From a virus: a stretch of DNA of 33,420 bases. Location: UHGV virus genome UHGV-0152658. One strand, written 5' to 3'. Of the stretch, positions 33 through 33,420 are shown one piece after another. Made by a program: the position numbers and the translations under genes. Under the pieces are notes generated by a model. The model was given only the letters and a program-made list of their open reading frames with translations. It ran no database searches and was not told the origin of the DNA. Each line of letters starts with the position of its first letter. Within the stretch, counting starts at the first letter, position 1.

Positions 33-61
33 CCAAAAATAAAGGCCGACTATGCGGCCTT
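33..61 (-). terminator. Intrinsic terminator (tL1-like) ending the N-proximal part of the leftward operon
   Basis: 7-bp stem aaggccg (42-48) / cggcctt (55-61) with 6-nt loop; on the minus strand it is followed by TTTATTTTT (33-41). Overlaps the stop codon of the 107-aa ORF. Confidence 0.6.
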
Positions 62-373
62 ATCTACATTCCTGAACCAAACGCAGATCGGACCGTCTTC
101 TGTATCGTGAATCGAACCGACAAACCATCCTTCTCCATCTGGCATGCTTGGCTCCCATCCACTGATGTTTGGATTCCCATCTTCAAAATACGCGTCAATT
201 ACCGTTTGATTGTTGTCGTTTTCCATTTCAACAATTGATGATTCAATGCCATGCTGCTTGCAGAAAGATCTGAACTCATCAGCTGAAATTGCCTCTCTAT
301 CCCCAAACAGGTTGGCGTATTCTGGGTGCGTCCAGTAGCCATCCTCGCTTCGCTCTACTACTAATGCTTCCAT
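50..373 (-). CDS. Hypothetical, strongly acidic early protein (107 aa), first gene downstream of N
   Basis: ORF with ATG at 373-371 preceded by GAGGTGA Shine-Dalgarno that overlaps the N stop codon; about 23 Asp/Glu versus about 6 Lys/Arg; no family recognised. Confidence 0.6.
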   Translation of the reverse strand: MEALVVERSEDGYWTHPEYANLFGDREAISADEFRSFCKQHGIESSIVEMENDNNQTVIDAYFEDGNPNISGWEPSMPDGEGWFVGSIHDTEDGPICVWFRNVDKAA

Positions 374-381
374 ATATCACC

Positions 382-708
382 TCAAATAAGTGGTTTGCTG
401 CCTAATTTCATTTTCTGGCGACCAACACAAGTCACACCCATTTCACTGCGTGGCTTGCTGTACCATGTGCGCTGATTCTTGCGCTCAATACGCTGCAGGT
501 TGCTTTCAATCTGTTCGTGGTATTCAGCCAGCACTGTAAGGTCTATAGGATTCAGTGCGCTTTCTACTCGTGATTTCGGTTTGCGATTCAGCGAGAGAAT
601 AGGGCGGTTAACTGGTTTTGCGCTTACCCCAACCAACAGGGGATTTGCTGCTTTCCATTGAGCCTGTTTCTCTGCGCGACGTTCGCGGCGGCGTGTTTGT
701 GCATCCAT
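382..708 (-). CDS. N: Antitermination protein N (lambda type)
   Basis: Translation from the ATG at 708 (MDAQTRRRERRAEKQAQWKAANPLLVGVSAKPVNRPILSLNRKPKSRVESALNPIDLTVLAEYH...) matches lambda N including the arginine-rich RNA-binding N-terminus; the 138-aa track ORF has an upstream alternative start that I reject. Confidence 0.9.
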   Translation of the reverse strand: MDAQTRRRERRAEKQAQWKAANPLLVGVSAKPVNRPILSLNRKPKSRVESALNPIDLTVLAEYHEQIESNLQRIERKNQRTWYSKPRSEMGVTCVGRQKMKLGSKPLI

Positions 709-818
709 CTGGATTCTCCTGTCAGTTAGCTTTGAGTAACGCGCCGTGATGCTTATCTCCACGGTTGCTGTCTTGCAGCTGCATTTCGCGCTACTCAAAG
801 CTTTCTGCTTTGAATGCT

Positions 819-848
819 GCCCTTCTTCAGGGCTAAATTTTTAAGAGC
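819..848 (-). promoter_or_regulatory. nutL site (boxB 819-833, boxA about 840-848)
   Basis: Plus strand gcccttcttcagggc is the reverse complement of lambda boxB GCCCTGAAGAAGGGC; adjacent ttaagagc is the reverse complement of a boxA-like GCTCTTAA. Confidence 0.8.
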
Positions 849-894
849 CTCACCTTCAATGGTGGTTAGTGCGTCCTGCTGATGGCTTAAAATT

Positions 895-962
895 ACAAGA
901 AAGATTGTATGTTTTAAACAAGAAATATTGTAAAAATGGGCGTGAAAAACAAACTCCATTGT
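895..962 (-). promoter_or_regulatory. OL operator cluster (three 434-type 14-bp operators) overlapping pL
   Basis: ACAAGAAAGATTGT (895-908), ACAAGAAATATTGT (918-931), ACAAACTCCATTGT (949-962): the ACAA-N6-TTGT pattern of phage 434 operators, upstream of N. Confidence 0.75.
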
Positions 963-1012
963 TTTTAAACGGAAAATAGTTTGTTTTTTGGTTGTCGAAA
1001 TTGAGGTGAGGA

Positions 1013-2365
<1,353 letters not shown>

Positions 2366-2373
2366 GACATTCC

Positions 2374-2405
2374 CGCTCTTACACATCCTAGCCCTGAAAA
2401 AGGGC
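2374..2405 (+). promoter_or_regulatory. nutR site (boxA 2374-2382, boxB 2391-2405)
   Basis: CGCTCTTACACA boxA followed by GCCCTGAAAAAGGGC boxB hairpin, the lambda nutR arrangement. Confidence 0.85.
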
Positions 2406-2428
2406 ATCAAATTAAACCACACCTATGG

Positions 2429-2450
2429 TGTATGCATTTATTTGCATACA
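2429..2450 (+). terminator. tR1-like hairpin (probably Rho-dependent region)
   Basis: 8-bp stem tgtatgca / tgcataca with tttatt loop between nutR and cII; no strong U-tract, so it is not a clear intrinsic terminator. Confidence 0.35.
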
Positions 2451-2484
2451 TTCAATCAATTGTTATCTAAGGAAATACTTACAT

Positions 2485-2778
2485 ATGGTTCGTGCAAACA
2501 AACGCAACGAGGCTCTACGAATCGAGAGTGCGTTGCTTAACAAAATCGCAATGCTTGGAACTGAGAAGACAGCAGAAGCTGTGGGAGTTGATAAGTCGCA
2601 GATCAGCAGGTGGAAGAGGGATTGGATTCCAAAGTTCTCAATGCTGCTTGCTGTTCTTGAATGGGGCGTCGTCGACGACGACATGGCTCGATTGGCACGA
2701 CAAGTTGCTTCGATTCTCACCAATAAAAAACGCCCGGCGGCAACCGAGCGTTCTGAACAAATCCAGATGGAATTCTGA
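2485..2778 (+). CDS. cII: CII transcriptional activator (lambda type)
   Basis: Translation from ATG 2485, MVRANKRNEALRIESALLNKIAMLGTEKTAEAVGVDKSQISRWKRDWIPKFSMLLAVLEWGVVDDDMARLARQVA..., matches lambda CII; 97 aa. Confidence 0.92.
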   Translation: MVRANKRNEALRIESALLNKIAMLGTEKTAEAVGVDKSQISRWKRDWIPKFSMLLAVLEWGVVDDDMARLARQVASILTNKKRPAATERSEQIQMEF

Positions 2779-2810
2779 GGTAATTACTGGATCAATCCAC
2801 AGGAGTAATT

Positions 2811-2972
2811 ATGACAAAACGTCGTAAGAAATACCAGGAAAAAGAAGAGATTCGACACCCTGATTCACCTGAGGGATTAGTGGTAGCCGCAGCAAATAAC
2901 AGGGCGTTCGCAGAGCGCCTTGTTGGTGTTTACAGACTAGCCAAAGCAGGAGTGAAACATGGGCGTCGTTAA
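2811..2972 (+). CDS. Small basic hypothetical protein (53 aa) between cII and the replication gene
   Basis: ATG at 2811 with AGGAG 5 nt upstream; MTKRRKKYQEKEEIRHPDSPEGLVVAAANNRAFAERLVGVYRLAKAGVKHGRR; below the 60-aa track cutoff; position resembles a small ORF found here in P22-like phages. Confidence 0.45.
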   Translation: MTKRRKKYQEKEEIRHPDSPEGLVVAAANNRAFAERLVGVYRLAKAGVKHGRR

Positions 2973-3849
2973 GTTAGCTGATTACAGGCATAACCCTGTA
3001 CAACATCAGGAGGCATCCAGTATGGGGTATGTCTCTATACACCGCCAGTTTATGGACAGCAGGCTCTATAAGGACTCTCAGGCAGTACATCTTTGGCTTC
3101 ACTTAATCCTCAAGGCTAATCACGAATCTACTGTCGTCAATACGGATATCGGTCCGATAACTGTTGATCGCGGTCAGATGATAACTGGACGCCCGTCGCT
3201 GGTCAGAGAAACATTCATCCCCGACAACAAAGTTCGGAGCTTATTACGGACTTTTGAGTCGAAAGGGATGCTTAATATGTGCTCGATGGGGAAGAAATTT
3301 AGCCTGTTTACAATCGTTAAATATGACGATTTTCAGGCAAAAAATTGTCCAACGGTTGTCCAACGGTTGTCCAACGCAAACACCAGTAATGGCGCGGCTC
3401 TCAGCGGAGATTGTCCAACGGTTGTCCAACAGTTGTCCATAAACAATAATATAAATAATATCTCTAATACTGACGTATTAGAGAGTGCCACAGCAGACAA
3501 AAAGTCTGACAAGAAAAAACCTTCCGTCAGCTGTCAGGATGTTGTCGATGCTTACCACGAAATCCTTCCTGAAGCGCCAAGAATCCGCGCACTGAATGAC
3601 AAGCGTAAAAACCAGATCCGAACGTTCTGGCGCAAAGCCGGAGTGATAACCAGACAGCTTGACGGGCATGGTTTCACGATGCAGGACTGGAGAAATTATT
3701 TGAGCTACGTAGGCGAAAATTGCCGATGGATGTTCGAAGAGCGTCCAAACCATCAACGCGGAACTGTCTGGCACAAAAAGGGATTTAATTTCCTGCTTAA
3801 CGATAATACCTACCTGAAAGTTCGTGAGGGTGAACACGATGACCGATAA
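2959..3849 (+). CDS. Replication initiator, O-like (P22 gene 18-like), with the origin inside the gene
   Basis: 296-aa ORF; ori iterons lie within the coding sequence as in lambda O and P22 gene 18; followed immediately by the helicase gene. Start is uncertain: ATG 2959 and ATG 3022 both have good Shine-Dalgarno sequences. Confidence 0.8.
   Translation: MGVVKLADYRHNPVQHQEASSMGYVSIHRQFMDSRLYKDSQAVHLWLHLILKANHESTVVNTDIGPITVDRGQMITGRPSLVRETFIPDNKVRSLLRTFESKGMLNMCSMGKKFSLFTIVKYDDFQAKNCPTVVQRLSNANTSNGAALSGDCPTVVQQLSINNNINNISNTDVLESATADKKSDKKKPSVSCQDVVDAYHEILPEAPRIRALNDKRKNQIRTFWRKAGVITRQLDGHGFTMQDWRNYLSYVGENCRWMFEERPNHQRGTVWHKKGFNFLLNDNTYLKVREGEHDDR
3345..3485. repeat. Replication origin: iterons plus AT-rich unwinding region
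   Basis: Tandem 11-bp TTGTCCAACGG units at 3345-3377 (three copies) and 3411-3439 (about 2.6 copies), followed by the AT-rich tract aaacaataatataaataatatctctaatactgacgtatta. Confidence 0.8.
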
Positions 3850-5275
3850 TTTTTATGCGCCGCCCCATAGCATCGAGGCAGAGCAGGCGGTGATTGGTGG
3901 ATTGCTTCTGGATGATGACAGCAGTGAGCGCGTCCAGAAAGTTCTGGCGATGCTGAAGCCTGATTCATTTTACAGCCGACCACACAAAATCCTTTTCGAA
4001 GAAATAACCAGAATGCACCGGGAGCAAAAGCCAGTAGATGGCCTGACGCTTTTCGATGAACTGGAGCGCAAATCGTTAACGGTGTCTGTTGGCGGTTTTG
4101 CTTATATCGCTGAGATCGCAAAGAACACGCCAAGCGCCGCAAACATCGTTGCCTATGCAATGCAGGTTCGCGAAACCGCAATGGAACGCTACGCCATCAA
4201 CCGCATGACTGAAGCGACGGAATTGCTCTATTCCCGCAACGGAATGACTGCAACGCAGAAGTACGAAGCTATTCAGGCGATTTTCACGCAACTGACAGAC
4301 CATGCAAAAACCGGATCGCGTCGCGGCCTTCGCTCATTTGGTGAGGTCATGGAAGACTGGGTTAGCGACCTTGAGAAGCGATTTGACCCGTCAGGCGAAC
4401 AACGAGGAATGAGCACAGGGATCCCATCGCTGGACAGGATGCTGTCACCGAAAGGTCTGGTGAAAGGCTCTCTGTTTGTCATTGGCGCTCGCCCTAAGAT
4501 GGGGAAAACGACGCTATACAGCCAGATGGCAATCAACTGCGCAGTGCATGAGAAAAAGCCCGCTCTGATGTTCAGCCTTGAAATGCCCGGTGACCAGATA
4601 CTGGAAAAACTGGTAGGACAGAAGTCAGGTGTTAACCCGAATATTTTTTACCTTCCGGCGACAAATGACGCTGATGACGGCTATCAGGGTGATTACGATG
4701 GTGACTTCAACAGGGCGATCGAAACAGCCAATCGCTTGAGTGAAATCGACCTGCTTTACATCGACGACACGCCGGGATTATCTCTGGCTCAAATCGTCAG
4801 CGAAAGTCGTCGAATCAAGCGAGAAAAAGGATGTGTTGGCATGATTCTGGTCGATTACCTGACACTAATGACCGCTGAGAAGGCCGATCGCAACGACCTT
4901 GCTTACGGCATGATCACCAAAGGACTGAAGAACCTTGCCAAAGAGCTTGATTGTGTTGTTGTGCTTCTGACACAGCTTAACCGCGCACTGGAAAGCCGAA
5001 CCAATAAACGCCCATTACCAAGTGACTCCCGAGATACAGGGCAGATTGAACAGGATTGCGATTATTGGGTTGGGATCCATCGTGAAGGTGCTTTTGATGA
5101 CAGTGTTCCACCTGGTGAAACCGAACTAATCCTTCGTCTCAATCGTCATGGCAATACCGGCACGGTGTATTGCATTCAGGCAAATGGCGCTATTTATGAC
5201 ACAGACCAACAGTCTGCTGAAATGCGCCGCCGTGAACGCGAGGAACCGCAGTCCAAGAAGAAAGGAGGATTCTGA
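3839..5275 (+). CDS. Replicative DNA helicase, DnaB family (P22 gene 12-like)
   Basis: Walker A GARPKMGKTT, N-terminal DnaB-like domain (HSIEAEQAVIGGLLLD); ATG at 3839 overlaps the end of the O-like gene. Confidence 0.88.
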   Translation: MTDNFYAPPHSIEAEQAVIGGLLLDDDSSERVQKVLAMLKPDSFYSRPHKILFEEITRMHREQKPVDGLTLFDELERKSLTVSVGGFAYIAEIAKNTPSAANIVAYAMQVRETAMERYAINRMTEATELLYSRNGMTATQKYEAIQAIFTQLTDHAKTGSRRGLRSFGEVMEDWVSDLEKRFDPSGEQRGMSTGIPSLDRMLSPKGLVKGSLFVIGARPKMGKTTLYSQMAINCAVHEKKPALMFSLEMPGDQILEKLVGQKSGVNPNIFYLPATNDADDGYQGDYDGDFNRAIETANRLSEIDLLYIDDTPGLSLAQIVSESRRIKREKGCVGMILVDYLTLMTAEKADRNDLAYGMITKGLKNLAKELDCVVVLLTQLNRALESRTNKRPLPSDSRDTGQIEQDCDYWVGIHREGAFDDSVPPGETELILRLNRHGNTGTVYCIQANGAIYDTDQQSAEMRRREREEPQSKKKGGF

Positions 5276-5679
5276 TGACCATCTACATCACCGAGCTAAT
5301 AACAGGCCTGCTGGTAATCGCAGGTCTTTTTATTTTTGGGGGGGATGGAAGTGTGGCTGACTGGCAAATTCCAATCATCATTCTTGCCGGAGCTTCGCTG
5401 GTTGCTGGCTTTATCCTGCTGAAAAAGCATAAAGACCGTGATCAAAAAGTCGAAGTTCTCTATGGGTATCCAGCGAACAGCACAACATGGCTGACCATTT
5501 ACCACTACCGAAAATCAGGCCGCTGGGTATTCGAATGGGATGATCTGTTCGCTGAAAAGCGACCAAAGTCATGGGGAGACATCAGCGAATGCATGATGTT
5601 TGAAGAAAGAAAATCCGGCGCAACCCGAGAAGAGTTTAACGAAGCGTGGGCGCGATTAAGTGAGAGAGGGTATTTGTGA
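5275..5679 (+). CDS. Hypothetical membrane protein (134 aa, two predicted N-terminal TM helices)
   Basis: ATG 5275 after AAAGGAGGA; hydrophobic stretches ITELITGLLVIAGLFIFGG and IPIIILAGASLVAGFILL; TGATG overlap with helicase stop. Confidence 0.6.
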   Translation: MTIYITELITGLLVIAGLFIFGGDGSVADWQIPIIILAGASLVAGFILLKKHKDRDQKVEVLYGYPANSTTWLTIYHYRKSGRWVFEWDDLFAEKRPKSWGDISECMMFEERKSGATREEFNEAWARLSERGYL

Positions 5680-5876
5680 GCAAGTACGAAAAATTAGATC
5701 AAAACATTCTTTCAATGCTGAGTGAAAGACCAACACCTGTTTTTGATATCTGGCTTAAATGGCGGAGCAATGGAATGTATATCGAAACCATCGATCGTCG
5801 TATGCAATACCTGAGAAAGAAAGGGCTTGTTGCAAATGTGCGTGGGAAGGGTTGGGTGAAAATTAACCTGTCATAA
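5676..5876 (+). CDS. Hypothetical small protein (66 aa)
   Basis: GTG start overlapping the upstream stop (GTGA), purine-rich Shine-Dalgarno upstream; no family recognised. Confidence 0.45.
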   Translation: MSKYEKLDQNILSMLSERPTPVFDIWLKWRSNGMYIETIDRRMQYLRKKGLVANVRGKGWVKINLS

Positions 5877-5887
5877 CGGGGATTGAT

Positions 5888-6160
5888 ATGGACGAATCAA
5901 GAAAGCAGTTTGAAGAATGGTTTAAAAACAAATATCACGTTTCAAGTGACGTGATGAAGATTATGCACATCAAGGTCGAGATTGCATGGGAGGCATGGCA
6001 GGCATCGCGAGCAGCTATTGAAATAACCGCGCCAAAGTTTATCGACAGCAGAGAAGCATTAGCCAAAGGGTTTACTGTTGATTATTCCAATGGCTTCGGT
6101 GATGCAATGGATGCTTATGAGGAAAACATCCGCGCTGCTGGAGTCAAAGTGAAGGAGTAA
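5888..6160 (+). CDS. Hypothetical protein (90 aa), nin region
   Basis: ORF with ATG and GGGGA Shine-Dalgarno; tightly packed before ninB. Confidence 0.55.
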   Translation: MDESRKQFEEWFKNKYHVSSDVMKIMHIKVEIAWEAWQASRAAIEITAPKFIDSREALAKGFTVDYSNGFGDAMDAYEENIRAAGVKVKE

Positions 6161-6162
6161 CG

Positions 6163-6573
6163 ATGAAGCAAACAATCTTCCTCCGAACTAAGCAACAACA
6201 GCAAGCCGCAATCAACGCCATCCTCGCAACTCCTCTCGATAAAGACAAGCCAGTCACCATCCGCATTACTGACTACAAGCGCAACCTTGACCAGAACGCA
6301 AAATTTCACGCGATGCTGGCTGATATCGCTTGTCAGGTTCAATGGTGCGGCAAATGGTTAAAACCAGAACAATGGAAGGTTTTGTTGATCAGCGGTCATG
6401 CAGTGGCAACAAAACAGGAAGCTGATGTTTTGCCCGGGCTTGAAGGCGAATACGTCAACATTCGCGAAAGTAGCGCGCAGATGAGTGTGAAGCGTATGGC
6501 AAGTCTGATTGAGTACACGACAGCATGGGCTATTGGTCAGGGTGTCAGATTTACCGACAGGAGATACGAATGA
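6163..6573 (+). CDS. ninB: NinB (Orf family recombination mediator)
   Basis: Resembles lambda NinB/Orf (conserved LDQN motif region, similar size); GGAG Shine-Dalgarno before ATG 6163. Confidence 0.8.
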
Positions 6574-6746
6574 GACGACAGCGACGAAGCATCACCGACA
6601 TAATCTGCGAAAACTGCAAATACCTTCCAACGAAACGCTCCAGAAATAAACGTAAGCCAATCCCGAAAGAATCTGACGTAAAAACCTTCAACTACACGGC
6701 TCACCTGTGGGATATCCGGTGGCTAAGACATCGTGCGAGGAAATGA
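6570..6746 (+). CDS. ninE: NinE
   Basis: ATG 6570 overlapping ninB stop (ATGA); [52 protein letters not shown] matches lambda NinE as I recall it. Confidence 0.8.
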
Positions 6747-7126
6747 CAATGGATTATTCACAGTTAAGTGATTTTGAAATTAACGTGGCGGTATTCGAAG
6801 CCATTCATAACGGATCACCGGATTACAAAGAAGGTGAGAATGGCGATATGGTGTTTGTCTCATTTGAGGGAGACATTGTAAACGGAGACGCAGTTGAAGT
6901 AGAAGTTGAGCGCGGATCCTTTAACCCATGCGCAAACCCAGCAGACTCATGGCCGATTATCACTGAAAACAACATCAGCATAATTTTAGACAATCCCTCA
7001 ATGCCGTGCGCCACAGACAACGCAAGGGACTTGTTTGATGATGCCTTACCGAATGTTGGTGTCGCATATGACAATCCACTCCGTGCCGCCATGATTGTCT
7101 TTCTCATGATGCGGAGAATCCAATAA
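6743..7126 (+). CDS. Hypothetical acidic protein (127 aa), NinX position
   Basis: ATG 6743 overlapping ninE stop (ATGA); Asp/Glu-rich; no family recognised. Confidence 0.55.
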
Positions 7127-7305
7127 TGCTTAGCCCATTCCAATCCCTTCAATACCAGAAAGAAAGCGTCGAGCGAGCTTTAACGTGCGCTAACTGCGGT
7201 CAGAAGCTGCATGTGCTGGAAGTTCACGTGTGTGAGCACTGCTGCGCAGAACTGATGAGCGATCCGAATAGCTCAATGTACGAGGAAGAAGACGATGGTG
7301 ATTAG
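7126..7305 (+). CDS. ninF: NinF
   Basis: ATG 7126 (TAATG overlap with upstream stop); [50 protein letters not shown] matches lambda NinF; 59 aa, below the track cutoff. Confidence 0.8.
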   Translation: MLSPFQSLQYQKESVERALTCANCGQKLHVLEVHVCEHCCAELMSDPNSSMYEEEDDGD

Positions 7306-7687
7306 CCGATACGGACAAATAACGTTTAAACATTTTCAAGACAATCCAACATGGGCTGCTGCGGCTGGATATGACTTTAATTATTTTGATTGTCTGTCAG
7401 TCGCATGTATAGCAACTACCAATGTTGCTAACAACATAATCGATGAATTCTTGGATTTTCCAGACTATCAGGTCAGAGAGTTGCCTGCATTTTTTGTGAA
7501 AGTATCTGTTGCTACAGCTCTGTTATTTATTTTGTTATTCGCATATCCATTGCTTGCCGTATTTGTTTATGTGAGATGCAAACACTCACAAAAGAAATAC
7601 AGCGGAGAGCATACCGATATTACCAGCCAAAATATGCGTGTGTGGTTGAGGAGATGCCAAGAGAAATGGGGGGGACGTCATGGCTAA
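7295..7687 (+). CDS. Hypothetical membrane protein (130 aa) on an AT-rich insert between ninF and the ybcO-like gene
   Basis: ORF with one clear hydrophobic helix (LLFILLFAYPLLAVFVYV); visibly lower GC than flanking nin genes. Confidence 0.5.
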   Translation: MVISRYGQITFKHFQDNPTWAAAAGYDFNYFDCLSVACIATTNVANNIIDEFLDFPDYQVRELPAFFVKVSVATALLFILLFAYPLLAVFVYVRCKHSQKKYSGEHTDITSQNMRVWLRRCQEKWGGRHG

Positions 7688-7970
7688 CCTACGCAAAGAA
7701 GCACGCGGCAGAGAATGCCAGGTTCGTATTTACGGCATATGCAATGGCAATCCTGAAACTACAGTTCTGGCACATTACCGGATGGCTGGAATTTGCGGAA
7801 CAGGAATGAAGCCTGACGACCTGATCGGGGCATGGGCTTGTAGTGACTGCCACGCGGAGATCGACCGACGCACCCATAACCTCGACAACAAAGACGCCAG
7901 ACTTTACCACCTCGAAGGCGTGATCAGGACGCAGGCGATACTGCTGAAGGAGGGAAAGATTAAGCCATGA
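7680..7970 (+). CDS. YbcO-like (DUF1364) Cys-rich protein
   Basis: 96 aa with Cys cluster; sits immediately before rusA, as ybcO does in the DLP12 prophage. Confidence 0.6.
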   Translation: MANLRKEARGRECQVRIYGICNGNPETTVLAHYRMAGICGTGMKPDDLIGAWACSDCHAEIDRRTHNLDNKDARLYHLEGVIRTQAILLKEGKIKP

Positions 7971-8329
7971 ACGAATATCAGTTTGTGCTTCCTTACCCGC
8001 CGTCGGTGAATACCTACTGGCGAAGACGTGGAAGCCAATACTACATCAGCGATAAAGGCCAGAAATACCGAAAAGAAGTTCAGCAAATCATCCACCAACT
8101 CAAGTTAGATATTTTCACCAAATCACGACTCCGCATCAAAGTCATCGCAGACGTTCCAGACTCCCGCCGCCGCGACCTCGATAACATCCTGAAAGGTTTA
8201 CTCGACTCCCTTATCCACGCCGGATTTGCGGAAGACGACGAGCAATTCGATGACATTCGCGTAATTCGTGGTGTGAAAGTACCAGGCGGACGGCTTGGAA
8301 TAAAAATCACCGAACTGGAGAACGTATGA
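7967..8329 (+). CDS. rusA: RusA-family Holliday junction resolvase
   Basis: Motifs PPSVNTYW and RRRDLDN and a size of 120 aa match the RusA family; ATGA overlap with the upstream gene. Confidence 0.85.
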   Translation: MNEYQFVLPYPPSVNTYWRRRGSQYYISDKGQKYRKEVQQIIHQLKLDIFTKSRLRIKVIADVPDSRRRDLDNILKGLLDSLIHAGFAEDDEQFDDIRVIRGVKVPGGRLGIKITELENV

Positions 8330-8514
8330 ACGCCACAATTCAAACGATACCAGAGCTTCTTATCCAGACACGAGGCAATCAGACCGAAGTGGCGAGGATG
8401 CTTTCCTGCGCAAGAGGAACAGTGCTCAAGTACAACCGAGACAGCAAAGGCGAGCGTCACGTAATAGTTAACGGCGTCCTGATGGTAACGCCAGGCAAAA
8501 AGGGAAGACGATGA
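8326..8514 (+). CDS. ninH: NinH
   Basis: Motif GNQTEVARxLxCxRGTV as in lambda NinH; 62 aa, directly before Q. Confidence 0.75.
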   Translation: MNATIQTIPELLIQTRGNQTEVARMLSCARGTVLKYNRDSKGERHVIVNGVLMVTPGKKGRR

Positions 8515-9134
8515 GACTCGAAAGCGTAGCTAAATTTCATTCGCCAAAAAGCCCGATGATGAGTGACTCACCACGGGCCACGGCTTCTGACTCTCTTTCC
8601 GGTACTGATGTGATGGCTGCTATGGGGATGGCGCAATCACAAGCCGGATTCGGAATGGCTGCATTCTGCGGTAAGCATGAACTCAGCCAGAACGACAAAC
8701 AAAAGGCTATCAACTATCTGATGCAATTTGCACACAAGGTATCGGGGAAATACCGTGGTGTGGCAAAGCTCGAAGGAAATACTAAGGCAAAGGTACTGCA
8801 AGTGCTCGCAACATTCGCTTATGCGGATTATTGCCGTAGTGCCGCGACGCCGGGTGCAAGATGCAGAGATTGCCACGGTACAGGTCGTGCGGTTGATATA
8901 GCCAAAACAGAGCAGTGGGGGAGAGTTGTCGAGAAAGAGTGCGGAAGATGCAAAGGCGTCGGCTATTCAAGGATGCCAGCAAGCGCCGCATATCGCGCTG
9001 TAACGATGCTAATCCCAAACCTTACCCAACCCACCTGGTCACGCACTGTTAAGCCGCTGTATGACGCTCTGGTGGTGCAATGCCACAAGGAAGAGTCAAT
9101 CGCAGACAATATTTTGAATGCGGTCACACGTTAG
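8511..9134 (+). CDS. Q: Late gene antiterminator Q (lambda type)
   Basis: Translation MRLESVAKFHSPKSPMMSDSPRATASDSLSGTDVMAAMGMAQSQAGFGMAAFCGKHELSQNDKQKAINYL... matches lambda Q over its full length as I recall it. Confidence 0.93.
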   Translation: MRLESVAKFHSPKSPMMSDSPRATASDSLSGTDVMAAMGMAQSQAGFGMAAFCGKHELSQNDKQKAINYLMQFAHKVSGKYRGVAKLEGNTKAKVLQVLATFAYADYCRSAATPGARCRDCHGTGRAVDIAKTEQWGRVVEKECGRCKGVGYSRMPASAAYRAVTMLIPNLTQPTWSRTVKPLYDALVVQCHKEESIADNILNAVTR

Positions 9135-9176
9135 CAGCATGATTGCCACGGATGGCAACATATTAACGGCATGATA

Positions 9177-9215
9177 TTGACTTATTGAATAAAATTGGGT
9201 AAATTTGACTCAACG
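9177..9215 (+). promoter_or_regulatory. Late promoter pR' (-35 TTGACT 9177-9182, -10 TAAATT 9200-9205, start near 9213) with overlapping qut
   Basis: Sequence TTGACTTATTGAATAAAATTGGGTAAATTTGACTCAACGATGG is the lambda pR' arrangement (17-bp spacer) directly downstream of Q. Confidence 0.85.
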
Positions 9216-9240
9216 ATGGATAAATGCACTCGTTAAATAA

Positions 9241-9269
9241 AGCCCTGAGTTAATAGCTCGGGGCTTTTT
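9241..9269 (+). terminator. Intrinsic terminator close to pR' (tR'-like; defines a short leader transcript)
   Basis: 9-bp stem agccctgag / ctcggggct (one G-U pair), 7-nt loop, then TTTTT. Confidence 0.7.
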
Positions 9270-9690
9270 GCGTTACAATCACAAAGGGAAGAGCGTTAGG
9301 TGAATCGGCGATACTGCCCCACAAGCCCGTTAATCGATAGAGGTAGACTAGCGCTCTTCCTTTTGTGCTGAATTAAGCGAATGCCGGAAGCAGAACCGGA
9401 TCACCAAATGCGTACAGGCGTCATCGCCGCCCAGCAACAGCACAACCCAAACTGAGCCGTAGCCACTGGCTATCCTGAACTCATCAGTGATAGTTACGCT
9501 GCGGCCTTCTATACATGACCTTCGTGAAAGCGGGTGGCAAGAGGCTGCGCTAACAACCTCCTGCCGTTTTGCCCGTGCATATCGGTCACGAACAAATCTG
9601 ATTACTAAACACAGTAGCCTGGATTTGTTCTATCAGTAATCGACCTTATTCCTAATTAAATAGAGCAAATCCCCTTATTGGGGGTAAGAC

Positions 9691-10014
9691 ATGAAGATGC
9701 CAGAAAAACATGACCTGTTAGCCGCCATTCTCGCGGCAAAGGAACAAGGCATCGGGGCAATCCTTGCGTTTGCAATGGCGTACCTTCGCGGCAGATATAA
9801 TGGCGGTGCGTTTACAAAAACAGTAATCGACGCAACGATGTGCGCCATTATCGCCTGGTTCATTCGTGACCTTCTCGACTTCGCCGGACTAAGTAGCAAT
9901 CTCGCTTATATAACGAGCGTGTTCATCGGCTACATCGGTACTGACTCGATTGGTTCGCTTATCAAACGCTTCGCTGCTAAAAAAGCCGGAGTAGAAGATG
10001 GTGGAAATCAATAA
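9691..10014 (+). CDS. S: Holin S (class I, lambda type) with dual-start motif
   Basis: [34 protein letters not shown]... matches lambda S; Met1-Lys2-Met3 dual starts and the upstream GGGGG-containing hairpin are present. Confidence 0.93.
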
Positions 10015-10474
10015 TCAACGTAAGGCGTTCCTCGATATGCTGGCGTGGTCAGAGGGAACTGATAACGGACGGCAGAAAACCAGAAATCATGGTTATGACG
10101 TCATTGTAGGCGGAGAGCTATTCACTGATTACTCCGATCACCCTCGCAAACTTGTCACGCTAAACCCAAAACTCAAATCAACAGCCGCCGGACGTTACCA
10201 GCTTCTTTCCCGTTGGTGGGATGCCTACCGTAAGCAGCTTGGCCTGAAAGACTTCTCTCCTAAAAGCCAGGATGCTGTTGCATTGCAGCAGATTAAGGAG
10301 CGTGGCGCTTTGCCGATGATTGATCGCGGTGATATCCGTCAGGCTATCGACCGTTGCAGCAATATATGGGCTTCACTGCCGGGCGCTGGTTATGGTCAGT
10401 TCGAGCATAAGGCTGACAGTCTGATTGCAAAATTCAAAGAGGCTGGCGGAACGGTCAGAGAGATTGAGGTATGA
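9998..10474 (+). CDS. R: Endolysin R (lambda-type lytic transglycosylase)
   Basis: [49 protein letters not shown]... matches lambda R; overlaps S end. Confidence 0.93.
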
Positions 10475-24283: not shown

Positions 24284-26124
24284 TGAAAGTAACTGCAAAC
24301 GGTAAGACATTTACCTTTCCTGATGGTACGAGCACCGAAGATATTGGCACCGCCATTGATGAGTATTTTGCTGGTCAGGCTGTTCAGCAACAAACAGTTA
24401 ATCAGGCCAATAATGCACCAACACGGGAAGAACCATCATTGATGCAACAAGCTGGCGATTGGCTCACTGGTGGTCAAAGTGCAGGGCAAATTGCAGAACA
24501 GGCTGGTCGTGGTCTGGTAAACATACCATTCGACGTATTACAGGGCGGCGCAAGCCTGATTAATGCAATCAGTCAGGGGCTTGGTGGCCCCAAGGTTTTG
24601 GATGATGTTTATCGTCCAGTAGACAGACCGACAGACCCTTATGCGCAAGCTGGAGAAACAATTGGCGGGTATTTAGTTCCAGGAGTTGGAACGGCAGGAA
24701 GCATGGCTATTGGATCACTGGCAGAGGCCGCAAATCAGAAAGGCGATTTCGCACAAAATGCAGCTAAAAATGCCGGAGTTAACCTTGCCGTTCAGGGTGT
24801 TCTTTCCGCAGCAGCAAAGGGAATAGGGCGTGGAATAACGGCTATAAAAGGCGATATTGCGCCAGAAGTGGCGAAAAAAATTGCCACATCAGAATCGATG
24901 GGCGTGACACCTATGACATCTGATGTCATCCCACCGAAAAATGCATTCACTCGTGGTCTTACTCAGGATGCTGAGGGGGCCATTCTTGGAACTGGCAGTA
25001 AAAGGGCAGAGCAATATGCAACGCGTAGTAAGTTGGTAAGTAATTATTTTGACCGTTTTGGTGAGTACAACCCTGATGATGTGGTGAAATCTCTGACCAC
25101 CACGTTAAGGGGACGGAAGGATGCCGCTGGCGCTGTTATCAATGACGTCACCAATAAAATGGGTAATGCCGCAGTTGATACCACAAACACTATGAATGCT
25201 CTGAATACAGCGATCGCAAGACAGGAACGGCTTGGGACGTCTGCCAATCAAAGCCTGCTTACATCCTTGCGTAACCTACGTGAAGAATTAGCAAACCCTG
25301 CAACTGATTTGGATGTTACGTTTGATCTCTTGCGTCAGCACAGAACGGCATTTAGATTTAATGTTCAGGGAGATGCTATGGTCTTCCCCAACCAGGCAAA
25401 AGCAGCTACCAATATGGTAGAGAATGCAATGTCAAAAGACCTTCGTAACGCAGTTGCTAAAAACCTCGGTGCTTCAGACGCAGCAAAATACCTTAAAGCA
25501 AATTCCGATTATGCAAACGTTTATAATAAGGTGCTTAATAAAAACATTGCTAACAAGCTCAATAAGGCAAGTAGTGAAGCCAGCCCTGAACTTATAAATA
25601 CCGTTGTATTAAGCAGAAAACCATCTGACGTGAAACGAATCTGGAGCGCACTGGATGATAAGGGGAAAGATGCTATGCGTGCAGCTTACGTCAGCAAAAT
25701 AGCGGAAAAGGCCGGTGACTCTCCAGCCAAGTTCATCACGGAAGTTAATAAGCTGAAATCTCAGTCAGGCGGTGAAATTTACAACACTATTTTTTCTGGA
25801 AAGCACATGAAAGAGCTTGATGCTCTTCATGAAGTTCTACAGCAAACAGCAAGGTCAGACACCGCAAATGTAGTAACTCAGACGGGGCAATCGCAAGCCA
25901 ACAGGATAAGGACGATTGGCGCAACTGCGACTCTTGGCGTATCAATGGGGCTTGAGGCTGGTTTCGGTGCAATGATGCGCTTGTATGAATTCAAAGCAGC
26001 AAGGAATGCGCTCTTACGTCTGGCAAACACCAAAGCTGGAACGCCAGCTTATGAAAGAGCGCTAAATAATGCTGCAAATGCGATACGTCCTATACTTTCA
26101 AGCCAAATTACAGCAGAACAATAG
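24283..26124 (+). CDS. Ejection protein (P22 gp16-like)
   Basis: About 613 aa; second ATG (24283) has better spacing to the GGTGGA Shine-Dalgarno than the first ATG at 24280. Confidence 0.75.
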
Positions 26125-26175
26125 ATAAATAATTAACTAAGCACATAACTACTGACAGATAACCAACGCAACGAC

Positions 26176-26196
26176 CCAGCTTCGGCTGGTTTTTTT
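26176..26196 (+). terminator. Intrinsic terminator after the ejection-protein operon
   Basis: Stem ccagc / gctgg with UUCG loop, followed by TTTTTTT. Confidence 0.6.
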
Positions 26197-26254
26197 ATGC
26201 CCAAAATTCACCGTAGCCACGCTGCGGCGTTTCCTTGTATCCGGAGCAAATTAA

Positions 26255-28678
26255 ATGACAGACATTACAGCCAATGTTGTAATTGGGATGCCTTCGCAAC
26301 TCTTCACTATGGCGCGTTCTTTTAAAGCCGTAGCCAATGGAAAAATTTATATCGGTAAAATTGACACTGACCCGGTAAATACTGAAAACCAGATTCAGGT
26401 TTATGTGGAGAACGAAGACGGTTCTCACGTTCCTGTTGCACAGCCAATCGTTATCAATGCTGCTGGATATCCGGTGCATAACGGACAGATTGCCAAATTC
26501 GTTACTGTGCAAGGTCATTCTATGTCTGTTTATGATGCGTACGGTGTGCAGCAGTTCTATTTTCCGAATGTGCTGAAGTATGACCCCGATCAATTGCGTC
26601 AGCAAATTGAAAGTAATGGGGGCGCATCAATAATAGGGACGGCAACTGGCACTACTGTTCAGGAAGAGTTAAATAAGTTAAAGAGTCTTCCTTTTCTGTA
26701 TCCAGAGCTCTATTTTGATGGGAATGAGGTGGATCATACATTAGCGTTTAAAAAAATGTATGCAGACGCAAAGATATTGAAAAAATCGGTTGTTGCTACA
26801 GGGAATTATGTTCTCACGGCAAGTTCCACAGACCCGATTGAAATAACAGTTAGCTCAGATATGAGTGATGCAACAGTGACGTGCTCTACATATCAGGGTG
26901 GAGATGTCTGGTCTTTGGACAAGACACTATTTGAAATCGCTCAGGATGAAAATGATGTCACTGAAATGTTTTCCGCAGTAAGTTACCTGAAAGGGCAGAC
27001 GAGCTTCCCTGTTACCGGATTACAGGGAACTATTATTCTTGATTCTACAGATGTTGTGATGGTGAGAAATAATGGTGGTAGTCTGTCAGACCAACTAAAA
27101 ACAGAAGTTCACGAGATTGACGCTGACGGTAACTTGCGTTATCGGAACTATTATATTTATAACGATCGACCTGTTGTTAAATATAAACCTTTTACAAATA
27201 TCCTGTATTTTAAAATGCCAAAGGTTGTTCTGGATGGGGCAAGAATCAATAATGCTGTTCTTTGCTCAAGGAATAACACCATAATACATGGAAATACAGT
27301 TGATGTAATAAATAATGGTAGCACAAGGCAGGTAGTAAACTTCCAACGATGCTCAAGAGTTTATGTTAACAACCTATACATGAGTCCTGTTGGATATCTT
27401 GATGGTACTGCACCCTCCATCCCCGCGGGAAGAAATGAGGCAGCTTATTTTATCCTCACTGAAAAATGTTCTGATGTAACAATGGATAATTGCTGCAGCA
27501 TCAATGGATGGGGCGGCTTTGATGGTAATAAATCACGGAATATACATATTAATCGATGTGACCTCCCTGGTGTTGGCGGTCACTACAGCATGTCTGATAT
27601 TTACCTCAATGAGTCGACAGTTCGTTATCATTGCGCGGCGCAAGGTTGGGGAGAATGGGTGGCCACTAACTGTAAACATCTTGGCATGTACGGGAAAAAT
27701 ACTCTTGAATTCTTCTCTGTGAAGCGAGATTACATGTCATCATGGGATGGTGAGATTCGAGTTGAAGGTTTACGAGTCATGTTACCGTCTACGTGTGAAG
27801 AGTATTTCTTGGTAAGCAGTCTTGAACCAAAATATAATGGTAATTTTATCGCCACAAGCCCGGATGTAGTGATAAAGGACGTGTCTCTTGATCTGACTAA
27901 TGCCTCTGGACTTGTGGAATTTAGAATATTGGATCTCGGCGTGTCAGGCGGAAATAATTATGAGCAATATATGATTCTGCCAAACAACCACTATATTGAA
28001 AATGTAAAGGTTGTAGGGACACGTTCTTATGATTCCAATTTATCCGTCAGCGTTGTCTACAATCAAAGGAACTACTCAAGATTAACGGCCGCTCAGTTTT
28101 CAACTATCGTAGGTAGAGGGAAATACAAGCTTACAGTGAAGGATGTGGATCTCGCTCGGCTTGGGAATACTACGCAGTTATCAAACCCAAGGTATAACGT
28201 GCAAGCGTTTAAGTTTACCACTTACCGCGTTCCACAGGATGTGAACGTCGATAACAGCTACAATTGCGTCCCTTACATTTCAGCATGGGATGACATGCTG
28301 GTGCGTATAACCAATCAAGACATGGCCATGGGGTATATCGACGGCGCGGTTGCTCGCACTTCCGCTTCATACAACAGGATCTTTTTTAACAACTGTCGAA
28401 TCTATGGATTAGGTTGGGGCAGTAGCGGTGGGCAACGAACAGGTATATTTGACTTTACAAGTTGTGTATTTGGATGGTTATCTGCAATCACTGGAGTTGC
28501 GGAGACATCTAATGCAACTATAGGCCTGCTTTTTGGCGCGAATGAGTCCGGTAATAGTGCTACTGGTAAATATTCCGGATGCGCAATTCTGGTCCAGTCA
28601 AACGCTTTCCAGTTGGCTGATTCAACATTCCGTACAAGAGTCCAGACCAACTATACAAACAACGGGGTATACCAATAA
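26255..28678 (+). CDS. Tailspike protein: conserved N-terminal head-binding domain plus a divergent receptor-binding (probably beta-helix) domain
   Basis: N-terminal about 110 aa ([42 protein letters not shown]...[15 protein letters not shown]...NVLKYDPDQ) matches the P22 tailspike head-binding domain as I recall it; the rest differs from P22 gp9 and is AT-rich; 807 aa. Confidence 0.85.
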
Positions 28679-28679
28679 A

Positions 28680-28707
28680 CTCAAGGGGGCTGAACCCCCT
28701 TGAGTTT
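28680..28707. terminator. Bidirectional intrinsic terminator between convergent tailspike and gtrC
   Basis: Perfect 10-bp stem ctcaaggggg / cccccttgag with 5-nt loop, U-rich tracts on both sides (TTTAT downstream on plus, TTTATT on minus). Confidence 0.8.
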
Positions 28708-28711
28708 ATGA

Positions 28712-30133
28712 CTACTTGAATGTAACGATATAAATCCCAGAATCTTTTTGCAGTTTGTAATTCCTGCCATCTTCAATCAATTCTACATTCTTACCATCTG
28801 ATTTAGCAATTTCTGCATTCATTCCTGAGTACCAGAAATAAGCATTCATAAACCATTTAGAAGTCAGGTTAAATTTCACAATATTTTTTAGGATTGGATA
28901 ATCAAGATAGATCTGCTTAAGATAATGAGGAAGGTTAGGCTCATTTCTTATATCAATCTTAACTAACCCAGAACGTTTATCCATGCTGTCAATAGATGCA
29001 ATAACTGATTCTAACTTCCTGATTTTATATTCAGACTCGTATTTGAAAGCATTCACATAAATAGATGCCATTGCTACCGAAATGAATAAATAAAATGCAG
29101 TTATCAAATATACAGCATATCTTACCTTAGAATCTTTTATCTTTAGCAAAGGTGTAAGTGCGACCATTAGAAATGCAGGGAAAGACATCAGCACTCTGGA
29201 TGATATTATAGCATTGCTAAACATTGCGTAGGGAATAAACAACAATAAGAATGAAATTGGCAATGAGACGGCAAATAACAATGAATCAAGGTATCTTCCA
29301 CTTGTGAAAGATTTAACTGCTTGCCACAGACACACTGCGTAAGAAATAACAACGAGCACTGAAACAACTGCTAGTTGAGTCGTCGATAACGAAGTTAACA
29401 ATGAAAATATATAGTTAATATTAGATAAGAACTCGCTAATTCCATCACGATTTAAGTGAACTATTGTCGTGTGGTTGTCAACGTATACATCTGTAGAAAG
29501 CAATGTAGTTGTAGTCTGAACAATGGCAAAGGTGACAACGAATATCACAACGCTGCTTAACACGTATCTCATATTTTCCTTTTGCGTTTTACTATTAAGC
29601 AAGTTGTTTAAAGACTGAAGAATGACAAGGCAGACAAATACAGCAAACGAAGTTTGATAGAAAAAGCTTGCTGCAGTGAGAAGCAGCAGTCTGAAAATAA
29701 AATTGAATTTATGTTCATACCTAACGGCCGCCAGCATAGCCAAAGAAAACGATGCCGACATTCCAATAACATCAATGTGGTATGACATGTTTTCAATATA
29801 AAATGGAGAACAAATTAAAACACATATCGTGATTGTTTTTGCAATCCATTGCTTGCCAAACACAGATTCAGCAAAGTAATTGCAGGCTACTATCATGATA
29901 ACAAATGAAACAACAAGGTTCAGTTGATAAACATCTGGCGAGATCAACTTTCCTGATGAATTCAAAAGGATGTAATACAACTCGGTAAGAAATCGACCTT
30001 GAGAAGCTAGCCCGATATATCCGTATGAATATCTTGCTACATCATCCACAAAAGGAGGCATATAAAAGAATGGAAGGAAGAAGCAAGCGACTATAAGTAT
30101 CGCTGGCATTTCATATCGCGTTAATTTAAACAT
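28712..30133 (-). CDS. Serotype-specific O-antigen glucosyltransferase (GtrC-type polytopic membrane protein)
   Basis: 473-aa protein with many hydrophobic helices, AT-rich, last gene of a gtrA-gtrB operon; specificity cannot be read from sequence. Confidence 0.75.
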
Positions 30134-31049
30134 CTTTAGACCCCTTAATTATATATCTTGGTCTTGATTTTACTTCGACATATATTCTGCCAATGTATTC
30201 CCCAAGCACACCAATACCTATCAACTGAATTCCCCCCAGGAAAAGAATTGAAACCAATAGCGATGGATAACCACGGACAGCATTACCGAACACCAATGTG
30301 TCGAAAATCATCCACACCCCGTAAAGGAACGAGAGTCCCGCAACAAGTAGACCGATGTAAGTCCACACGCGCAAGGGGAAGGTCGAGAAACTTGTAATCC
30401 CCTCAAGCGCCAGGTTCCAGAGCTTCCAGCCATTGAACTTTGTGCTTCCGGCAACGCGTTCAGCACGGATGTATTCAACAACATCCGTCTTACCGCCAAC
30501 CCAAGATAAAACGCCTTTCATAAACAGGTTACGCTCTGGCAGTAGTTTGATATTTTCTACCATCTCTCGTGACATAAGACGGAAGTCACCAACGTTCTCT
30601 TCAATCTGCGGATTACTAATTTTGTTGTGAAGTTTATAAAACCACTCAGCAGTTTTACGCTTTAACCTACCATCAGTTGATCTGTCAGAGCGCTTTGCCA
30701 GCACCATATCAGCACCTGCCTGCCACTTTTCAATAAGATGAGGAATGACCTCAATCGGGTCTTGCAGGTCAACATCAATTGGAATCACGGCATCGCCAGT
30801 TGCATGGTCTAACCCTGCAAACAATGCTGGTTCTTTACCAAAGTTGCGTGTAAATGACAGCGGAACAACTAGCGGATCAGAAACAGCCAGAGCATTAATA
30901 ATTGACTCCGTAGCGTCTTTGCTTCCGTCATTTATGAAAACAATTTCCACTTCATATGGCTTCAACTCTTCGAATTCACGTACCGTTTTATAAAAAATTG
31001 GTATCGCTTCTTCTTCATTGAAGACAGGAACTACAAGAGATATCTTCAT
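30126..31049 (-). CDS. gtrB: Bactoprenol glucosyltransferase GtrB (GT2 family)
   Basis: N-terminal GT2 signature ([11 protein letters not shown]...FINDGSKD...DVDLQDP) and C-terminal TM helices; 307 aa. Confidence 0.9.
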
Positions 31050-31408
31050 TTCGCATCCCTAAAGACAATGAACTTTGAATAGACGAAACCGCACACCAGG
31101 CTGATGGCGGAAAAGGTGACGAGAGTGATAATTGGAGGAAGTGAACATCTATCAGCAGCCCATCCAACAGTTGCACTCAGTGTTCCCATGAACCCGACAA
31201 ATAACATGTAGCGCATCGTTGTAGTCGATGCTTTGAATGTGAATTTTGCATTCGCGAAGAAGCTAAAACTCACAGCCACAACGAAACCTGCGAAGTTTGC
31301 CAGAGCCTGATTGGTATGCGCGGCATAGATACATACACCAAAAACCACCCAGTGTATAAGTGTGTTCAGCACACCAATCGAGGTGTACTTTGCAAATAGC
31401 TTTAACAT
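31046..31408 (-). CDS. gtrA: GtrA flippase-like small membrane protein
   Basis: 120 aa, four predicted TM helices, GtrA-like; ATGA overlap with gtrB. Confidence 0.88.
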
Positions 31409-31932
31409 TTATTTAATCAATGAGTTCTGAAAGGCATGAAGTCTATCATCCAAGTCTCAATCGATCGATACTTGCGGTAGTTGATGAAGAAAAACTCTGG
31501 TACACAAAGCTTTGCACTGGATTGCAAGGATTTGTGTCATTCGATAGTTAAGGTGGTTCACTCCACCTTTTCATCAAGCCAGTCTGCCCACCACTGCATC
31601 ATTTCTCTGCGCTTAACGTAGCGGATGCCTCACTATCACACGGTGATGGTTCATTACTGCTTTGTAGAATGGATAGAGAACTGAGGATAAAAAGATATCC
31701 CAAAACCCCAAAATCTCATCTTTAGGATTTGCAGAAAGGGAGGCGTGAACAGATACCTGCGCATGAAGACGGAACTAGTCCAGATGTGATATTTGTGGTG
31801 ATCACATACATCATCAACGATGCTCGTTATGGTGAGTTTGATGACTACCCGCTGAAGTGAAAATTGTGTTGTGTACCAAATTGCGTACCAAACTAAAATC
31901 ACAAATCATGAAACCCTTGTTAATGGCGGTTC

Positions 31933-31995
31933 TCAGGGGTGTTGCGCGTAATCGTGAAACAAAAAGGTAGATTGTTGCTTACCGTCATTCATCAT
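31933..31995 (-). pseudogene. sbcB: 5' remnant of host sbcB (exonuclease I) truncated at the prophage junction (attR)
   Basis: Minus strand from ATG at 31995 translates MMNDGKQQSTFLFHDY, which I recognise as the SbcB N-terminus, then AQHP and a stop. Confidence 0.7.
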
Positions 31996-32203
31996 TAGGT
32001 TAAATCCGTTATTTCTGCTGTCTGCCAGAGTATCAAATATCACCGTGCTAATCAGCTTTAGCGCGACAATTTGGCAGCGAGTGGCAACAGTTCATGTCAG
32101 ATAAAAATGAGATAGTAGTCACATTTTCTTGCACTTTATTCCAGCCAGTTCATAAGTATTTCCGTAAAAAGAACAGCTATTTGAAACACCTGAGGGTTTG
32201 CTG

Positions 32204-33370
32204 TTGAAACGCCGTCTTATTATTGCTGCTTCTTTGTTCGTTTTTAATTTATCGTCTGGTTTTGCGGCGGAAAACATTCCTTTTTCACCTCAACCTCCAG
32301 AGATTCATGCCGGGTCCTGGGTATTGATGGATTACACCACCGGTCAGATTCTCACCGCGGGTAATGAGCATCAACAGCGCAATCCCGCCAGCCTGACAAA
32401 GCTGATGACGGGCTATGTCGTGGATCGCGCTATCGATAGTCATCGCATTAAGCCAGACGATATTGTCACCGTGGGGCGTGATGCGTGGGCGAAAGATAAT
32501 CCGGTGTTTGTCGGTTCTTCACTGATGTTTTTGAAAGAGGGCGATCGCGTATCGGTACGTGATTTAAGCCGTGGTTTAATTGTGGATTCCGGAAATGACG
32601 CTTGTGTTGCTCTGGCTGACTATATTGCCGGTGGGCAACGGCAGTTTGTTGAAATGATGAACAACTATGCCGAGAAGCTGCATCTCAAGGATACGCATTT
32701 TGAAACAGTGCATGGTCTGGATGCACCTGGCCAGCATAGCTCGGCTTATGATTTAGCCGTGCTTTCTCGCGCTATCATCCACGGCGAGCCCGAGTTTTAT
32801 CATATGTACAGTGAGAAAAGCCTCACCTGGAACGGTATCACCCAGCAAAACCGTAACGGGTTATTGTGGGATAAAACCATGAATGTTGACGGCCTGAAAA
32901 CGGGCCATACTTCTGGTGCCGGGTTTAATCTTATTGCTTCGGCTGTAGACGGGCAGCGTCGCCTCATTGCAGTGGTAATGGGGGCTGACAGTGCAAAAGG
33001 TCGTGAGGAAGAGGCAAGAAAATTACTGCGTTGGGGGCAACAAAACTTTACTACGGTGCAAATTTTGCACCGTGGGAAAAAGGTCGGTACGGAACGCATC
33101 TGGTATGGCGATAAAGAAAATATCGCCCTGGGAACGGAACAAGAGTTCTGGATGGTGCTACCGAAAGCCGAAATTCCACATATCAAAGCCAAATATACCC
33201 TTGATGGTAAAGAACTCACCGCGCCAATTAGCGCCCATCAGCGGGTAGGGGAAATTGAACTTTACGACCGTGATAAACAGGTGGCGCACTGGCCGCTGGT
33301 TACCCTGGAATCTGTCGGGGAAGGCAGCATGTTTTCCCGCCTGAGTGATTATTTCCACCATAAGGCCTGA
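32204..33370 (+). CDS. dacD: D-alanyl-D-alanine carboxypeptidase DacD (PBP6b), host gene
   Basis: Signal peptide, SxxK active-site motif (ASLTKLMT), SGN and KTG motifs; start set at TTG 32204 to give 388 aa (track ORF begins at TTG 32198). Confidence 0.88.
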   Translation: MKRRLIIAASLFVFNLSSGFAAENIPFSPQPPEIHAGSWVLMDYTTGQILTAGNEHQQRNPASLTKLMTGYVVDRAIDSHRIKPDDIVTVGRDAWAKDNPVFVGSSLMFLKEGDRVSVRDLSRGLIVDSGNDACVALADYIAGGQRQFVEMMNNYAEKLHLKDTHFETVHGLDAPGQHSSAYDLAVLSRAIIHGEPEFYHMYSEKSLTWNGITQQNRNGLLWDKTMNVDGLKTGHTSGAGFNLIASAVDGQRRLIAVVMGADSAKGREEEARKLLRWGQQNFTTVQILHRGKKVGTERIWYGDKENIALGTEQEFWMVLPKAEIPHIKAKYTLDGKELTAPISAHQRVGEIELYDRDKQVAHWPLVTLESVGEGSMFSRLSDYFHHKA

Positions 33371-33420
33371 CCTTTCTTTTGCAGCAGACTGGCAGGAGTG
33401 CGAGTCTGCTCGCATAATCA

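Follow-up and report, generated by a model that had tools for sequence, protein, structure and literature searches.

Phages with an attachment site in sbcB

Intragenic attachment sites at which attP carries a copy of the gene end are found for phage 21 and e14 in icd, and for many phages that integrate in tRNA genes. At these sites, the diverged copy of the gene end keeps the target gene intact, and the same principle applies to the locus analyzed here. The classic icd and tRNA cases replace the 3′ end of the gene, however, and the host promoter still drives it, whereas in sbcB it is the 5′ end that is exchanged, which leaves the phage to provide the start codon, the ribosome-binding region and, presumably, the promoter. 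The sbcB site is a clear example of this rarer type of intragenic attachment site.

Integration at sbcB is itself well documented, as the gene is a standard integration locus of Stx phages. For two phages, 2851 (Stx2c) and Sf101 (Shigella), the location at the 5′ end of sbcB has been published together with CGTAATCGTGAAA as the 13-bp core common to attP and attB (PMC4159516), and the integrase of Sf101 is reported to share 99% identity with its counterparts in HK544, mEp234 and 2851 (PMC4159516). The attachment site is thus already known from these two phages, and the arrangement is an ordinary one. The accessible portions of the Sf101 paper contain no discussion of whether the sbcB reading frame is regenerated (PMC4159516), and no explicit description of such a regeneration was found in the searchable open literature, whose coverage does not extend to the primary paper on phage 2851. 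Database records mark the same site: the record of mEp234 annotates the core as “prophage attachment site (type 2851)”, and in the record of phage 1717, where dacD lies downstream of it, it is labelled “duplication due to insertion of stx2c phage”. In public annotation, the fused gene already goes by the name exodeoxyribonuclease I.

We analyzed a stretch of 33,420 nucleotides from UHGV virus genome UHGV-0152658, referred to as the window. On sequence grounds, its right end is the attR of a type 2851 prophage within the start of sbcB: the core is found exactly at 31947-31959, the attB lies in the 5′ end of sbcB beside dacD, and the phage arm is homologous to that of other type 2851 phages. The integrase gene lies outside the window and was therefore taken from a near-identical lysogen (locus L010), where it encodes 392 amino acids with Pfam domains Arm-DNA-bind_3 and Phage_integrase, and shares 390/392 residues with the integrase of mEp234, 391/392 with that of E212 and 388/392 with that of HK140. 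In our reading, which we hold to be very probable, a P22-like gtrABC prophage of about 39 kb has its attR in sbcB, and a phage-borne start rebuilds the exonuclease I (ExoI) reading frame at attL.

Three groups of relatives can be set beside this prophage. Stx phages 2851 and 1717, as well as Stx1a, Stx2a and Stx2c prophages of E. coli O157, O145 and O26, use an identical core and the same attB, and their attR phage arm is about 93% identical to that of the window. These are long- or short-tailed lambdoid phages with stx and effector genes at their right end, whereas the window is P22-like and has gtrABC there. Sf101, a Lederbergvirus of Shigella flexneri, shares the P22/Sf6-like architecture of the window prophage as well as its order of tailspike, opposite-strand O-antigen cassette, decayed UmuD-like gene, CGTAATCGTGAAA, int and AlpA-type Xis; it differs in its cassette, which consists of oacB (O-acetyltransferase) and not, as in the window, of gtrABC (glucosylation). 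Finally, mEp234, HK544, HK140 and E212/EC.P3 are free phages that are either of other morphotypes (Hendrixvirinae) or P22-like without gtr, but they have the same attP with an sbcB look-alike start, and integrases matching at 388-391 of 392 residues. In HK140, the UmuD-like gene beside attP is still intact, in contrast to the decayed copy in the window.

The attR junction and its phage arm

The features from the right end of the gtr operon to the end of the window are as follows.

31409..31618, minus strand: region upstream of gtrA, presumed gtr promoter region (99.8-99.96% identity to locus L018)
31491..31946, no strand: attR phage arm (the attP arm distal to int), common to all type 2851 phages
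31609..31860, plus strand: decayed UmuD-like (S24 peptidase) remnant, found by tblastn with HK140 gp28
31873-31880 and 31885-31892, plus strand: two direct copies of GTACCAAA, candidate arm-type integrase sites
31933..31995, minus strand: orphaned host sbcB 5′ end, from its translation; host part identical to K-12
31947..31959, no strand: 13-bp attR crossover core CGTAATCGTGAAA, the sole copy in the window, from the att-site comparison
31996..32203, no strand: host sbcB-dacD divergent intergenic region, colinear with K-12 b2010-b2011 and intact at attR
32204..33370, plus strand: dacD (penicillin-binding protein 6b), an intact host gene, from its ORF and the dacD homologues in XDL and K-12

To define the junction, we aligned in one orientation the uninterrupted sbcB-dacD locus of K-12 (L006), the attP sites of mEp234 and E212 (L003, L004), the attL sites of XDL (L002) and Z30 (L005), the attR of XDL (L001) and the window. 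The four types of site align as a clean reciprocal exchange at the 13-bp core, and CGTAATCGTGAAA is exactly shared by attB (K-12), attP (mEp234, E212), attL (Z30, XDL, L010, L012) and attR. On the sense strand of sbcB the core reads TTTCACGATTACG, which takes in codons F13-H14-D15-Y16 and reaches one base into E17. To its right, the first 100 bp are identical to K-12, and positions 31947..33420 align with K-12 MG1655 without gaps at 98.5% identity over 1474 bp.

The open reading frame at 32043..31933 on the minus strand translates as MIFDTLADSRNNGFNLMMNDGKQQSTFLFHDYAQHP followed by a stop, with MMNDGKQQSTFLFHDYAQHP and the stop as its tail portion. Codons 1-16 of sbcB (MMNDGKQQSTFLFHDY) occupy 31995..31948 on the minus strand, starting from the native ATG at 31995..31993. 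The frame then runs through four foreign codons (AQHP) to the stop codon TGA at 31935..31933, leaving 20 codons behind the native sbcB promoter, of which the first 16 are from the host and the last four from the phage arm. The native promoters of both sbcB and dacD reside in the intergenic region. The longest reading frame of dacD starts at 32198, and at the identical locus in near-identical contigs (L019, L021) the gene has Pfam domains Peptidase_S11 and PBP5_C.

These results bear out several points of a preliminary description of the window, made from its letters alone. It had recognized the minus-strand frame as the start of sbcB, diverging after codon 16 and stopping within four codons; it had placed this some 540 bp to the right of gtrA, where the junction is indeed found at a distance of 539 bp, and had reported an intact dacD and divergent sbcB-dacD region to follow, which holds with 98.5% identity to K-12 from the core to the end of the window. 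Its placement of attR within the 5′ coding end of sbcB agrees with the att-site alignment, and its estimate of 31945-31960 for the core brackets the actual position. The alignment to an uninterrupted locus that it had proposed as a check, carried out here with K-12, confirmed the junction.

The window arm from 31491 (to 31946, or to 31976 with the core included) is 92-95% identical to mEp234, E212, 2851, 1717 and Sf101, and the phage arms of other Stx phages at sbcB are likewise 92-95% identical. The two copies of GTACCAAA conform to a consensus GTACCA(A/G)A, of which three more copies occur in the same orientation on the int side of attP and attL. By analogy to the P and P′ arm sites of lambda, we infer that these repeats are candidate arm-type binding sites of the integrase. 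The UmuD-like remnant is 56% identical to HK140 gp28 over 84 amino acids (E = 2e-25), and has an in-frame stop and no N-terminus; Sf101 and some RefSeq genomes annotate an 82-amino-acid antisense hypothetical protein (31654..31902, minus strand) or a “HumD/S24 peptidase” at this place.

The gtrA-proximal part of the arm holds further small elements. An inverted copy of the arm repeat (GTACCAGA) is found at 31503 on the minus strand, and two hairpins at 31510-31529 and 31551-31575 on the plus strand, one of them followed by a T run on that strand. They lie in a stretch that is shared by the region upstream of gtr and the region 3′ of the tail-fibre gene in mEp234. The hairpins may be late-operon terminators of an ancestral phage, which would now lie antisense to gtrA on its upstream side. 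A scan of 31300-32300 against Rfam gave no RNA family.

The sbcB reading frame at attL

As the window's own attL lies beyond its ends, we read attL from near-identical contigs found via an exact-protein look-up. Contig DALOSW010000001.1 (GCA_027224725.1) differs from the window by 4 mismatches over 1-10373 (L010) and by 1 mismatch over 24712-33420 (L019), and ENA scaffolds come still closer (1 mismatch at L012, 0 at L021). In DALOSW010000001.1, the two cores are direct repeats, with 38,953 bp from attL to attR. Its attL consists of the gene for the 392-amino-acid integrase, 181 bp, and then, divergently oriented, an intact sbcB of 474 amino acids with Pfam domains RNase_T, ExoI_SH3 and ExoI_C. 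The ENA scaffold L012 has int and a divergent intact sbcB as in L010, and the same arrangement recurs at the attL of XDL, Z30, L011 and L098. A complete 474-amino-acid sbcB frame is present in 6 of the 6 attL loci read.

The gene order beyond sbcB differs among these lysogens. In the near-identical lysogen and in Z30, plaP directly follows sbcB (L010/L012 18760-18832, L005 586-660) and tsuB/tsuA (yeeD/yeeE) are missing, while these two genes are present between sbcB and plaP in K-12, XDL and L011.

The replacement start is already present in the attP of the free phages, where 15 codons that resemble the beginning of sbcB abut the core on its int side, as the reverse complement of ATG ACA GAC ACA GAT AAA CAA CCT ACC TTC CTC TTT CAC GAT TAC G. 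It encodes MTDTDKQPTFLFHDY, one codon shorter than the sbcB start and diverged from it; in attP of mEp234 and E212, the resulting mini-ORF MTDTDKQPTFLFHDYAQ(Y/H)P, followed by a stop, runs across the core. At attL, the first codons of sbcB (MTDTDKQPTFLFHDY) and the region upstream are phage-derived, and host codon 17 and all that follows are joined to them in frame. Relative to K-12, the hybrid ExoI has changes at residues ~3-9 and only a few strain polymorphisms otherwise. Its entire length can be aligned with the E. coli ExoI of crystal structures 4jrp and 1fxx, where the differences are again limited to the N-terminal tail and a few strain polymorphisms. The catalytic D-Y-E motif is retained in its sequence, and Asp15 and Glu17, which are catalytic in DEDDh enzymes such as exonuclease I, are both kept in the fusion. 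In the 9 nucleotides just upstream of the core, phage and host differ at 4 positions (ACC TTC CTC in the phage versus ACC TTT TTG in the host), all of them synonymous, as both encode T-F-L.

In this reading, a type 2851 tyrosine integrase inserted the prophage at sbcB codons 13-17 by recombination within the 13-bp core CGTAATCGTGAAA, with the int side of attP supplying an ATG and MTDTDKQPTFLFHDY after 181 bp of phage DNA. Integration shifts the host promoter and the first 16 sbcB codons to attR, where reading ends four codons later, and at attL it joins the phage start in frame to the host sequence from codon 17 onward, giving a 474-amino-acid ExoI. Because int faces in the opposite direction, no phage operon would read into the hybrid gene; a promoter within the 181 bp of phage DNA would drive it, and ExoI function would be kept in lysogens. 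By targeting a strongly conserved block of active-site codons, the phage would gain an attB that is stable and widely conserved, and would do so at no cost in gene function.

The junctions are common. Of 5426 complete E. coli genomes, 464 have an attR-type junction (at least 80% of 795 bp covered) and 582 an attL-type junction (int with fused sbcB); roughly 10% of the complete genomes have the arrangement, including Stx2c lineages of O157:H7. Among the matches listed, RefSeq names the gene sbcB, exodeoxyribonuclease I, in 5 of 5 attL-bearing genomes. Exact copies of three hybrid protein sequences were found on 125, 287 and 259 contigs, respectively. A scan of IMG/VR for attP variants returned 33 attR and 5 attP sites that are nearly invariant, with one D-to-G change. 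None of the complete E. coli RefSeq genomes exceeds 97% over the junction or 76% prophage coverage.

Traces of the same arrangement were also found outside Escherichia and Shigella, by a degenerate-pattern scan of species-representative genomes. Buttiauxella sp. B2 (L096, 2650-3440), Mixta theicola and Mixta sp. Q2659 (L095, L100) and Winslowiella arboricola (L101) have truncated or frameshifted remnants of a 70-75% identical integrase, which lie upstream of, and divergent to, an intact sbcB of ~475 amino acids. In Buttiauxella, the entire int-side arm is still alignable, including its three repeats, and the core variant is TTTCATGATTACG. This suggests that these loci are fossil attL sites, at which the phage start has outlived the prophage, and that sbcB-5′-targeting integrases extend past Escherichia and Shigella into Erwiniaceae. 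We also considered that the look-alike start had been captured from the native sbcB of another genus, as the Buttiauxella gene matches it at 30 of 31 nucleotides. This gene was rejected as a donor, because its upstream region aligns with the whole int-side arm and an integrase remnant is present, so that the locus itself appears to be a fossil attL.

We infer from these sequences that the hybrid sbcB is expressed from phage DNA and that its product is functional. It could instead be that the frame is regenerated but silent or strongly mis-regulated, making the lysogen a functional hypomorph or placing ExoI under phage-dependent control. The native promoter does stay behind at attR, the 181-bp segment has three putative arm-type integrase sites, and the phage ATG has no obvious Shine-Dalgarno sequence ahead of it. 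Scanning the phage segment of attL for the sigma-70 consensus likewise revealed no promoter, but the scan is uninformative here because it equally missed the native sbcB promoter at attR. Conversely, the hybrid gene is intact over hundreds of contigs and the 582 complete genomes, the codon changes between the phage and host T-F-L are all synonymous, and an intact sbcB beside a decayed integrase in three other genera would be unexpected if the fusion were silent, and so supports a usable one. We therefore regard a silent or mis-regulated gene as rather unlikely.

A promoter swap acting at both junctions, with the phage setting ExoI expression and the host sbcB promoter feeding gtrABC, seems quite unlikely to us. 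If it were true, the phage promoter of sbcB would lie among the arm-type integrase sites, so that the phage could dictate ExoI levels or tie them to the occupancy of these sites by Int and Xis, and the orphaned host promoter at attR could add to gtrABC expression; with either effect, the att site would be a device for regulatory rewiring rather than a neutral landing pad. A terminator scan of the minus strand from the orphaned sbcB promoter to gtrA detected no intrinsic terminator, so that read-through into gtrABC is possible.

That the insertion simply inactivates sbcB, leaving a lysogen without ExoI and with altered recombination and phage biology, is very improbable. While the native promoter and start codon at attR drive only the 20-codon frame, near-identical and related lysogens have the full-length in-frame gene at attL, the replacement start is already carried by the attP of free phages, and RefSeq calls the gene exodeoxyribonuclease I in the listed lysogens. 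The preliminary description had expected sbcB to be split unless the left end of the prophage supplied a new 5′ end, and had anticipated a loss of ExoI. Its proviso turned out to be the correct part: the search for attL that it proposed revealed a complete sbcB frame in the near-identical contigs and CGTAATCGTGAAA as the direct repeat shared by attL and attR. The split and the loss of ExoI do not stand, because an intact sbcB is present at the locus, both in the near-identical lysogen and in every related lysogen examined; it was such a gene that the description itself had named as evidence against its reading.

Least of all can the 16-codon match be a chance resemblance or an assembly chimera, a reading for which only the brevity of the coding fragment speaks and which is practically eliminated by the identity to K-12 in the 100 bp right of the core and at 98.5% from the core through dacD, by the recurrence of the junction in the 464 complete genomes and 33 IMG/VR prophage contigs, and by the reciprocal attL on one contig with attR in the near-identical lysogen.

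With the frame rebuilt at attL from a phage-borne start, as we favor, the 20-codon stub left at attR is a by-product. Finding a prophage junction in sbcB is thus no ground for scoring ExoI as lost, because the other junction rebuilds the gene with a phage-derived start. As the stub is frequent, pangenome and pseudogene pipelines could miscall sbcB.

The gtrABC cassette and its neighbors

At the right end of the prophage, an O-antigen glucosylation cassette, gtrABC, occupies 28712..31408 on the minus strand.

28712..30133, minus strand: gtrC-type glucosyltransferase, from its ORF; Pfam Glucos_trans_II on an identical protein
30126..31049, minus strand: gtrB, from its ORF; Pfam Glycos_transf_2 on an identical protein
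31046..31408, minus strand: gtrA, from its ORF; Pfam GtrA_DPMS_TM on an identical protein

The cassette lies between the tailspike gene and attP. Pfam detects a Head_binding domain in the tailspike as well as P22 gp16, and RefSeq names in homologous prophages include portal, gp10, ejection proteins and tailspike. As read from its genes, the prophage is a P22-like (Lederbergvirus-type) serotype converter with gtrABC, and a sibling of Sf101. The gtr operons of Salmonella and P22 have a phase-variation architecture in which four GATC sites are under the control of OxyR and Dam. Such an architecture is not evident upstream of this gtrA; GATC occurs between gtrA and the core only at 31463 and 31800.

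The tailspike and gtrABC are also found together in prophages elsewhere. The block at 24712-31618 is 99.96% identical to one in a prophage at a different chromosomal site (L018), which has a different integrase, of 385 amino acids, directly beside gtrA, and copies adjacent to glyA-hmp (L020, L022) are about 98.5% identical. The presence of this block at different sites and with different integrases indicates that the O-antigen module is exchanged between integration modules. The identity to L018 stops at 31618, inside the 128-bp stretch (31491-31618) that is shared with the type 2851 arm.
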